From the IMG/VR virus record IMGVR_UViG_2737471844_000006: a DNA stretch of 47,932 bases; one strand, given 5' to 3'. A program made the translations under genes and the position numbers. Each line of letters starts with the position of its first letter. The first letter of the stretch is position 1. The DNA is from a virus (lineage: Duplodnaviria; Heunggongvirae; Uroviricota; Caudoviricetes). Under the pieces are notes generated by a model. The model searched no databases. It saw only the letters and a program-made list of their open reading frames with translations, and was not told the origin of the DNA. Shown here piece by piece: positions 40,366-41,715 of this stretch.

Positions 40366-40514
40366 ATCACAGTTTTATGATAAAACTTTTACCTTGGTTT
40401 GGAGTGCTGTAGAGAGATATTTTAGGGGGGCGAGTAATTTTCTAAGCTGGAGCATATTGACATATATTATTTCGGATTTGCAAAATACATATTGTTACCA
40501 TGGAGGAGACAAGC

Positions 40515-41675
40515 ATGGAAAATTTTGCAAATAAGTTAAAAATACACACAGAGCATGTTGCAAAAATGGGGGTGTTTTGTACAACTGAAGAAACGACAAA
40601 ACAAGCACTCATTATGCCATTACTAGATATTCTTGGTTTTACTCCGTATGATCCAAGAAAAGTCAAAGCTGAGTATAGTGCTGACTTCCCCGGGGTTAAG
40701 GCTAATGAACGGGTTGATTACGCTTTATTTTGTCATGATGTTCCTGTGATGTTCATTGAGGCGAAATCGTTTTCAGAACAAATTGATAATCACTGCCCAC
40801 AGCTATCAAGATATTTTAATTCAACACCGGAAGTTACTATATCAGCCATTACAAATGGTGTTGAATGGCGTTTTTTTACGGATTTGAAACAAAAAAACAT
40901 AATGGATTCAACGCCGTTTTTAAAAATAAGAATGGATTCTCTAACTCACTCCGATATTACACAATTATTTCGTTTTCGTTATGATAAATTCAAACCAGAG
41001 GCTTTACGGACACTGGCTGAAGAAAGTGTTTATTTGAATTCATTTACTAAAACAATCAGTTCTAGTCTTCGTGAAGTTGATCTGGAGTTTGTTCGATATG
41101 TTGCTAGTCGTTCAAATATTGAGAGACAACTTAATCAGAGATTTCTTGAGTTCGTGACTCCATTAGTTAAACAGGCCGTTGAGCGCGCTGTTAGCGCAAT
41201 GGTGGTTTCCGGGCTATCTACACAACCGGTAGAGCAAACTAAAGAAAATGATGCAACGGATACACAAGTTAATAACGCCATTGTTGATGAAGAAAACCCC
41301 AACATAATAACCACAGCCAAAGAATTGGAGCTATTTGAAAGGGTAAAACAAATCATACAAACAGAAGATAATATAGAATATAAAGATACTGAGTCATATT
41401 TTGGTGTGCTATTGAATGGTAAAACTAATAGATGGCTGTTAAGATTTTATGATAAAAAATCTTCATTTATAACTTTACCTATTTCGCTTAGTGAAGTTCA
41501 GTTGAATGAAATAAGACGAGCTCGACTTGATACGGATGGTAAAAGGATACATATAACTAATCCGGAAGATATACTTCGCATATCTGGTTTGATTCTGGAT
41601 TCATACGAGTATGTTAAAAATGATGATAATTTCCGCCGAGGGTCCAGAGTGAGCAGTTTAGAAGAGGTTGAATAA
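40515..41675 (+). CDS. Cargo gene: protein with HsdR-N-like PD-(D/E)xK nuclease domain
   Basis: 386 aa from ATG 40515 (GGAGGAG SD); ERVDYALF...VPVMFIEAKSF...ITNGVEWRFF pattern; low GC; own terminator. Confidence 0.7.
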   Translation: MENFANKLKIHTEHVAKMGVFCTTEETTKQALIMPLLDILGFTPYDPRKVKAEYSADFPGVKANERVDYALFCHDVPVMFIEAKSFSEQIDNHCPQLSRYFNSTPEVTISAITNGVEWRFFTDLKQKNIMDSTPFLKIRMDSLTHSDITQLFRFRYDKFKPEALRTLAEESVYLNSFTKTISSSLREVDLEFVRYVASRSNIERQLNQRFLEFVTPLVKQAVERAVSAMVVSGLSTQPVEQTKENDATDTQVNNAIVDEENPNIITTAKELELFERVKQIIQTEDNIEYKDTESYFGVLLNGKTNRWLLRFYDKKSSFITLPISLSEVQLNEIRRARLDTDGKRIHITNPEDILRISGLILDSYEYVKNDDNFRRGSRVSSLEEVE

Positions 41676-41678
41676 GTA

Positions 41679-41703
41679 AAAAACCCGCGAAAGCGGGTTT
41701 TTT
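41679..41703 (+). terminator. Rho-independent terminator
   Basis: AAACCCGC-GAAA-GCGGGTTT hairpin followed by T-run. Confidence 0.75.
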
Positions 41704-41715
41704 AATGGAGTAAAT

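Follow-up and report, generated by a model that had tools for sequence, protein, structure and literature searches.

Among the closest described relatives of the protein considered here is the nuclease domain of HsdR, known from EcoR124I (2w00) and from a Vibrio HsdR fragment (3h1t). The two share the Pfam families HSDR_N and HSDR_N_2 and a motif set that comprises a Glu on a helix, an Asp, an ExK motif and a RecB-type QxxxY motif (PMC2475608), the last of which is required for efficient cleavage in EcoR124I (PMC2475608). In HsdR this domain is accompanied by SF2 translocase/helicase domains. The type IIG/IIL enzymes, such as BpuSI (3s1s) and DrdV (7lo5), combine an N-terminal nuclease and a helical connector with a methyltransferase and a target-recognition domain. 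Type IV enzymes (Mrr, the MspJI family and McrBC) are solitary nucleases without a cognate methylase, in which a PD-(D/E)xK nuclease is joined to a separate DNA-reader domain of the SRA, EVE, winged-helix (Mrr_N) or McrB-N kind. Among the immunity genes of temperate phages, RexAB of lambda is a two-protein membrane-depolarising abortive system. Fillol-Salom et al. are said to have described in Cell in 2022 a single PICI-encoded 'HsdR-like' gene that protects against phages, reportedly included in DefenseFinder as 'FS_HsdR_like'. The concept would be alike; none of the E. coli copies of the present gene that were examined lies in a PICI-like context.

The gene was found in an E. coli prophage in a virus record of 47,932 nucleotides (IMGVR_UViG_2737471844_000006), the whole of which is called the window. 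The prophage is of the Rac type, with an integrase, RecET and a myovirus-like tail, and a Mu-like origin (Mu-like phages are mentioned in a preliminary description of this DNA) was therefore rejected. The features of the locus are collected in Table 1.

Table 1. Features of the cassette and of the genes on either side (positions in the window; aa, residues of the encoded protein)
Feature	Position	Strand	Remarks
Left flank, 115-aa gene	40018..40365	+	phrog_7986, 1.6e-64; conserved in the tail/baseplate module; PHROG function label: unknown
Cargo cassette (moron)	40366..41707	+	1.3 kb, 36% GC; sister phages hold unrelated cassettes in the slot
Sigma-70-like promoter candidate	40457..40486	+	TTGACA (40457-40462), 18 nt, CAAAAT; consensus match
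Inverted repeat	40476..40532		Perfect, 11 nt, ATTTGCAAAAT / ATTTTGCAAAT; brackets the -10 element, Shine-Dalgarno sequence and start codon
Shine-Dalgarno GGAGGAG	40502..40508	+	6 nt before ATG 40515; read from the sequence
CDS, 386 aa + stop codon	40515..41675	+	Stand-alone HSDR_N-family nuclease (predicted), PHROG 4225
N-terminal domain, aa 1-135	40515..40919	+	HsdR-type, RecB-family PD-(D/E)xK; E25, D68, E82-x-K84, Q96-xxx-Y100
Helical connector, aa 136-235	40920..41219	+	Helices 145-152, 161-186, 190-199 and 208-232, pLDDT >90
Acidic disordered linker, aa 236-261	41220..41297	+	pLDDT <50 at residues 241-252; net charge -6
C-terminal alpha/beta domain, aa 262-375	41298..41639	+	YdhG / YjbR(MmcQ) / T4 MotA-CTD 'double-wing' fold (predicted)
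Intrinsic terminator hairpin	41677..41704	+	Perfect 12-bp stem, GAAA loop; the T-run is the 3' arm of the stem
Right flank, baseplate J / wedge gene	41716..42942	+	phrog_6, 2.5e-38; PGAP 'baseplate J/gp47 family'

The longest open reading frame (40500-41675) would encode 391 aa. The start at ATG 40515 is shared by 31 of 31 aligned homologues and by PGAP and is backed by the Shine-Dalgarno sequence, and the product is the 386-aa protein of the preliminary description, with a mass of 44.7 kDa. Overlapping and antisense frames at 40286-40534 (+), 40442-40666 (-) and 41135-41356 (-) were treated as spurious. The protein matches phrog_4225 over its full length (4.5e-149; residues 1-370 against profile positions 1-357 of 357). 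With a dN/dS of 0.03 against its closest homologue, the gene is under purifying selection.

The N-terminus had been described as HsdR-N-like with a PD-(D/E)xK fold, and the profile searches agree. Pfam HSDR_N (PF04313) matches with 53.0 bits (cut-off 25.1) and HSDR_N_2 (PF13588) with 37.8 bits (cut-off 25.0), and HSDR_N is also matched by all 128 diverse homologues. The motifs quoted in that description are present at aa 65-72 (ERVDYALF), 81-84 (IEAK) and 113-121 (TNGVEWRFF). Across the 128 homologues, at 25-85% identity, four residues do not vary (E25, D68, K84 and Y100), and E82 and Q96 are kept in 90% or more. The catalytic Asp, the (D/E)xK and QxxxY motifs and a restriction-endonuclease-like fold, which mark the RecB family of PD-(D/E)xK nucleases, are all found. 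The active site is intact and conserved, and the protein is predicted from these residues to be a nuclease.

PGAP names the product "type I restriction endonuclease". This name overstates what the protein is, because it has neither a helicase motor nor HsdM/HsdS nor a conserved partner gene. HSDR_N domains are the only ones recognised in it: residues 130-386 have no Pfam match, no SF2 motor is present, and the score against the NCBIfam HsdR equivalog is 19 bits where the cut-off is 729. ATP-driven translocation is impossible for this protein, since the motor domains of HsdR are lacking. Neither hsdM nor hsdS lies near the gene in the window, where its neighbours are tail genes, or in about 90 homologous loci.

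The C-terminal 250 aa had been left unassigned, and Pfam indeed offers nothing for them; profile search and AF2 structure prediction now divide the region into a helical connector, an acidic linker and a double-wing domain. The AF2 model built from the 128 diverse sequences reached a pLDDT of 92, while that from 32 close homologues reached 69 and gave no significant Foldseek matches. The connector has no Pfam match and is present in every family member, an HMM of the region matching all 127 others. Together with the nuclease head it is the part that can be compared with the type IIG/IIL enzymes; unlike them, the cassette protein has no methyltransferase or target-recognition domain, and the small double-wing domain stands as its putative recognition module. 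The linker is poorly conserved, with a pairwise identity of 0.24 even within the enterobacterial homologues.

In the predicted structure, the C-terminal domain superposes on the alpha/beta double-wing core of YjbR/MmcQ (PF04237), YdhG (DUF1801) and the T4 MotA C-terminal domain. Its sequence, however, is matched by none of their Pfam families, and its surface is not markedly basic. The double-wing fold is treated as DNA-binding in the literature (PMC7641849, PMC3424535), and the domain is probably a DNA-recognition module, as judged from the model. It diverges faster than the nuclease head and is missing in 5 of 127 relatives; two of those carry DUF4357 (64-70 bits) in its place and one a weak SeqA_C-like region. 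In the PDB, neither the single protein nor the 128-sequence profile found a significant sequence match, and a BFVD fold search returned one member of the family only, with no named function. As for its charge, the domain is close to neutral, with a net charge of -1 and a pI of 5.9 (the median net charge of the family is 0). Many DNA binders are basic and this domain is not, and the YdhG/YjbR fold is also known from proteins for which no DNA role has been demonstrated; both observations count against a DNA reader.

Like the type IV enzymes, the cassette protein is a solitary nuclease without a cognate methylase, and it has a PD-(D/E)xK nuclease and a separate, putative DNA reader. No methyltransferase gene is adjacent to it in the window, and among the 25 most frequent families listed for adjacent genes at 75-80 loci there is neither a methyltransferase nor a specificity gene. 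The reader is different in kind, being none of the SRA, EVE, winged-helix and McrB-N domains. The double-wing fold is not an established modification reader, the literature reporting only a remote likeness to McrB-N. The type IV models in PADLOC did not match, nor did any of the 5027 models of PADLOC-DB v2.0.0 even at E <= 1, which counts against a defence role.

The preliminary description had placed the gene between two baseplate genes and let the element begin at 40440. The right-hand neighbour is indeed baseplate J, but the left-hand one is identified only as a conserved gene of the module, and the cassette begins earlier, directly after the upstream stop codon. Junction alignment shows that it spans exactly the interval from the stop codon of the 115-aa gene to the ribosome-binding site of baseplate J. 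Homology to the closest phages, Rac-SA53 and pPE4, ends near 40366-40376 and returns at 41708; nucleotide identity in the left flank is 94% to both up to 40376, and in the right flank 96% to Rac-SA53 from 41708 onward. The nuclease gene is missing from both phages at the same junction. Of 93 E. coli genomes that have such a prophage, 25 carry the gene, and the other 68 have the flanking genes without it. In other E. coli prophages the slot holds an Ant antirepressor, an LprI-like gene or hypotheticals. The low GC noted earlier holds as well, at 0.358 for the cassette and 0.356 for the CDS against 0.499 for the upstream structural genes (flanks about 50%), with a GC3 of 0.26 against 0.48 for baseplate J; of all segments of the same size in the sequence, only 3.4% are equally AT-rich. 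The gene is thus a moron, laterally acquired accessory cargo as first proposed and not a part of the baseplate, because the closest phages and 68 of the 93 related prophages hold other cargo in its slot. The deviant GC, a terminator and a promoter-like site, the last being a consensus match, agree with this. The slot itself is a general cargo hotspot for several unrelated cassettes. A 12-nt direct repeat, GTTTTTTAATGG, at 40323 and 41697 was considered as an insertion mark and rejected; its left copy lies within the upstream gene, and its chance expectation in such an AT-rich region is, by our rough estimate, about 0.1. Apart from it, there are no candidate flanking repeats for site-specific insertion.

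The expression signals named in the preliminary description, TTGACA, the GGAGGAG sequence and a terminator of its own, are all present. The promoter candidate agrees with the consensus at 10 of 12 positions and is the top-scoring promoter-like site within 39700-42200. The inverted repeat ATTTGCAAAAT / ATTTTGCAAAT could be a putative operator pair or a hairpin of the 5' leader, and the window contains 10 copies of the motif ATTTGCAAAT with at most one mismatch, where 4.6 would be expected. The terminator, which ends just 5' of the baseplate J ribosome-binding site, has a free energy of -17.4 kcal/mol (z = -5.66), and 0 of 200 shuffles fold as well. An Rfam scan of the cassette gave sub-threshold, terminator-like matches only. 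In this prophage, the consensus promoter match is the one pointer to a possible expression in the lysogen; the gene is located in the tail module and not behind a repressor, which speaks against a defence function.

The family, PHROG 4225, is large, with about 3400 clusters at 50% identity in many phyla, among them Proteobacteria, Firmicutes, Bacteroidota, Actinobacteria, Fusobacteria and spirochaete plasmids. A search of the literature on HsdR-like, HSDR_N or PF04313 defence genes found no paper or experimental report on it. In Klebsiella phage KpF5, in Citrobacter, Providencia and Salmonella and in two E. coli prophages, a homologue follows a cI- or RacR-type repressor gene at a distance of 9-170 bp and in the same orientation. 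In the tail module of a Yersinia prophage the homologue follows an Mnt/Arc pair, and in a pneumococcal phage it stands between repressor and integrase. Across the loci of 80 species, the gene upstream encodes an HTH_3 protein in 20 cases and a Peptidase_S24 protein in 18, and no partner gene recurs downstream at 75-80 loci. Many homologues therefore resemble lambda RexAB in position, being directly downstream of the maintenance repressor, in the same orientation and divergent from cro. They differ in having no sequence or fold relationship to RexAB, and the present gene differs further by its place in the tail module. The preliminary guess of a single-gene exclusion or abortive-infection function is strengthened, because homologues repeatedly follow a prophage repressor directly and lack a conserved partner gene.

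The gene is a good candidate for a one-gene anti-phage defence. Our best reading, which we hold at a probability of about one half, is a single-protein, lysogen-expressed, methyltransferase-independent, restriction-like defence. We infer that the gene would be expressed from the prophage in the lysogen and that the C-terminal domain would bind incoming DNA at a mark absent from the host chromosome, which may be a modified base, another mark or a structure. The tethered nuclease head would then cut the marked DNA, and superinfecting phages or other invading DNA would be kept out in a restriction-like manner by one protein with no methyltransferase. A solitary nuclease must spare the DNA of its host, and the sequence reveals no means for this, which is a point against such a defence.

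The protein could instead be a toxic effector of abortive infection. The nuclease would stay inactive in the lysogen, the C-terminal domain would respond not to DNA but to a phage protein or a cue of infection, and indiscriminate DNA degradation would kill the cell before phage release. The position behind cI would suit this explanation as it suits lambda rexAB, and toxin-antitoxin genes (HicA, RES, PIN, HigB) and a SLATT effector adjoin some of the loci. The lack of a basic C-terminal surface would also fit, and the flexible linker might allow autoinhibition. However, no antitoxin-like or sensor partner is conserved, and the proteins structurally nearest to the C-terminal domain are considered DNA binders. 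The domains that may replace it, DUF4357 and RAMA- or SeqA_C-like modules, are companions of DNA enzymes. Such an effector is considered unlikely.

The PHROG label of the family, 'DNA, RNA and nucleotide metabolism / endonuclease', would be in line with a nuclease that serves the phage itself in lytic growth or induction by degrading host or competitor DNA, by acting in recombination or repair, or by destroying nucleic acids of a host defence. Some copies are near the recombination genes RecT, Gam and RdgC, and the gene lies here inside the late operon, where it may be transcribed by late read-through. On the other hand, homologues were found in 19 of 50,697 phage records, all of them temperate- or prophage-looking and none virulent. 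The co-transcription geometry with cI, RacR and Mnt is typical of lysogen-expressed genes. Copies persist where a prophage has decayed to a remnant, and also as solo genes in chromosomes, under strong purifying selection, and sister phages do without the gene, which is dispensable. A role in the phage's own growth is thus quite improbable.

Many carrier prophages encode orphan DNA methylases within a few kb, which counts against a methyltransferase-independent defence. It raises the thought that the nuclease is one half of a split restriction-modification system, cutting unmodified sites while an orphan methyltransferase elsewhere protects the host in trans. The window's own C5 methylase (12633-13697) would be the candidate, at a distance of 27 kb from the nuclease gene, and the nuclease head belongs with those of type I / IIG enzymes. 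Nevertheless, these methylases are of several types (Dam-like, C5, MT-A70, class I SAM), lambdoid prophages commonly carry such genes in any case, and none is adjacent or conserved. No methylase lies close to the solo chromosomal copies of Gilliamella and Edwardsiella, and the cassette moves as a single gene. We regard a split system as very unlikely.

A selfish homing-type endonuclease, which would cut the empty slot in related phages and spread through recombinational repair while benefiting neither host nor phage, is the least credible proposal: the insertion between two conserved genes is precise and gene-sized, near-identical phages differ in its presence, and closely related copies are found at quite different loci, but the slot is shared by unrelated cassettes (Ant, LprI, hypotheticals) as a cargo hotspot would be and not a homing site, the gene has a moron-like predicted promoter and terminator, the commonest position of the family is in an operon with a repressor, and, to our knowledge, no family of homing endonucleases combines HSDR_N with a double-wing domain.

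For this group of prophages, the comparison documents a polymorphic cargo slot inside the baseplate operon that alternates between antirepressor cassettes and the nuclease. The restriction-like defence, if true, would be a compact addition to the immunity genes known from prophages, a one-gene system of about 1.2 kb, and would account for the recurrence of the gene in a rexAB-like position in temperate phages across phyla. A wider proposal is tentative and rather doubtful, namely that HSDR_N plus double-wing proteins form a class of restriction enzymes that is very widespread but has gone unrecognised, each a single polypeptide working independently of a methyltransferase. Such enzymes would be found mainly in the immunity regions of temperate phages (behind cI, beside Mnt/Ant, or in moron slots), and an exchangeable C-terminal reader would set which DNA is attacked, by its modification or another mark. 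None of this would be revolutionary, as nuclease-encoding morons are expected, and the gene offers a clean and cheap experimental target. If the reading is true, the systematic mis-annotation as "type I restriction endonuclease" would be corrected, and the protein would serve as a minimal model for aiming an HsdR-type nuclease head without a motor or a methylase.

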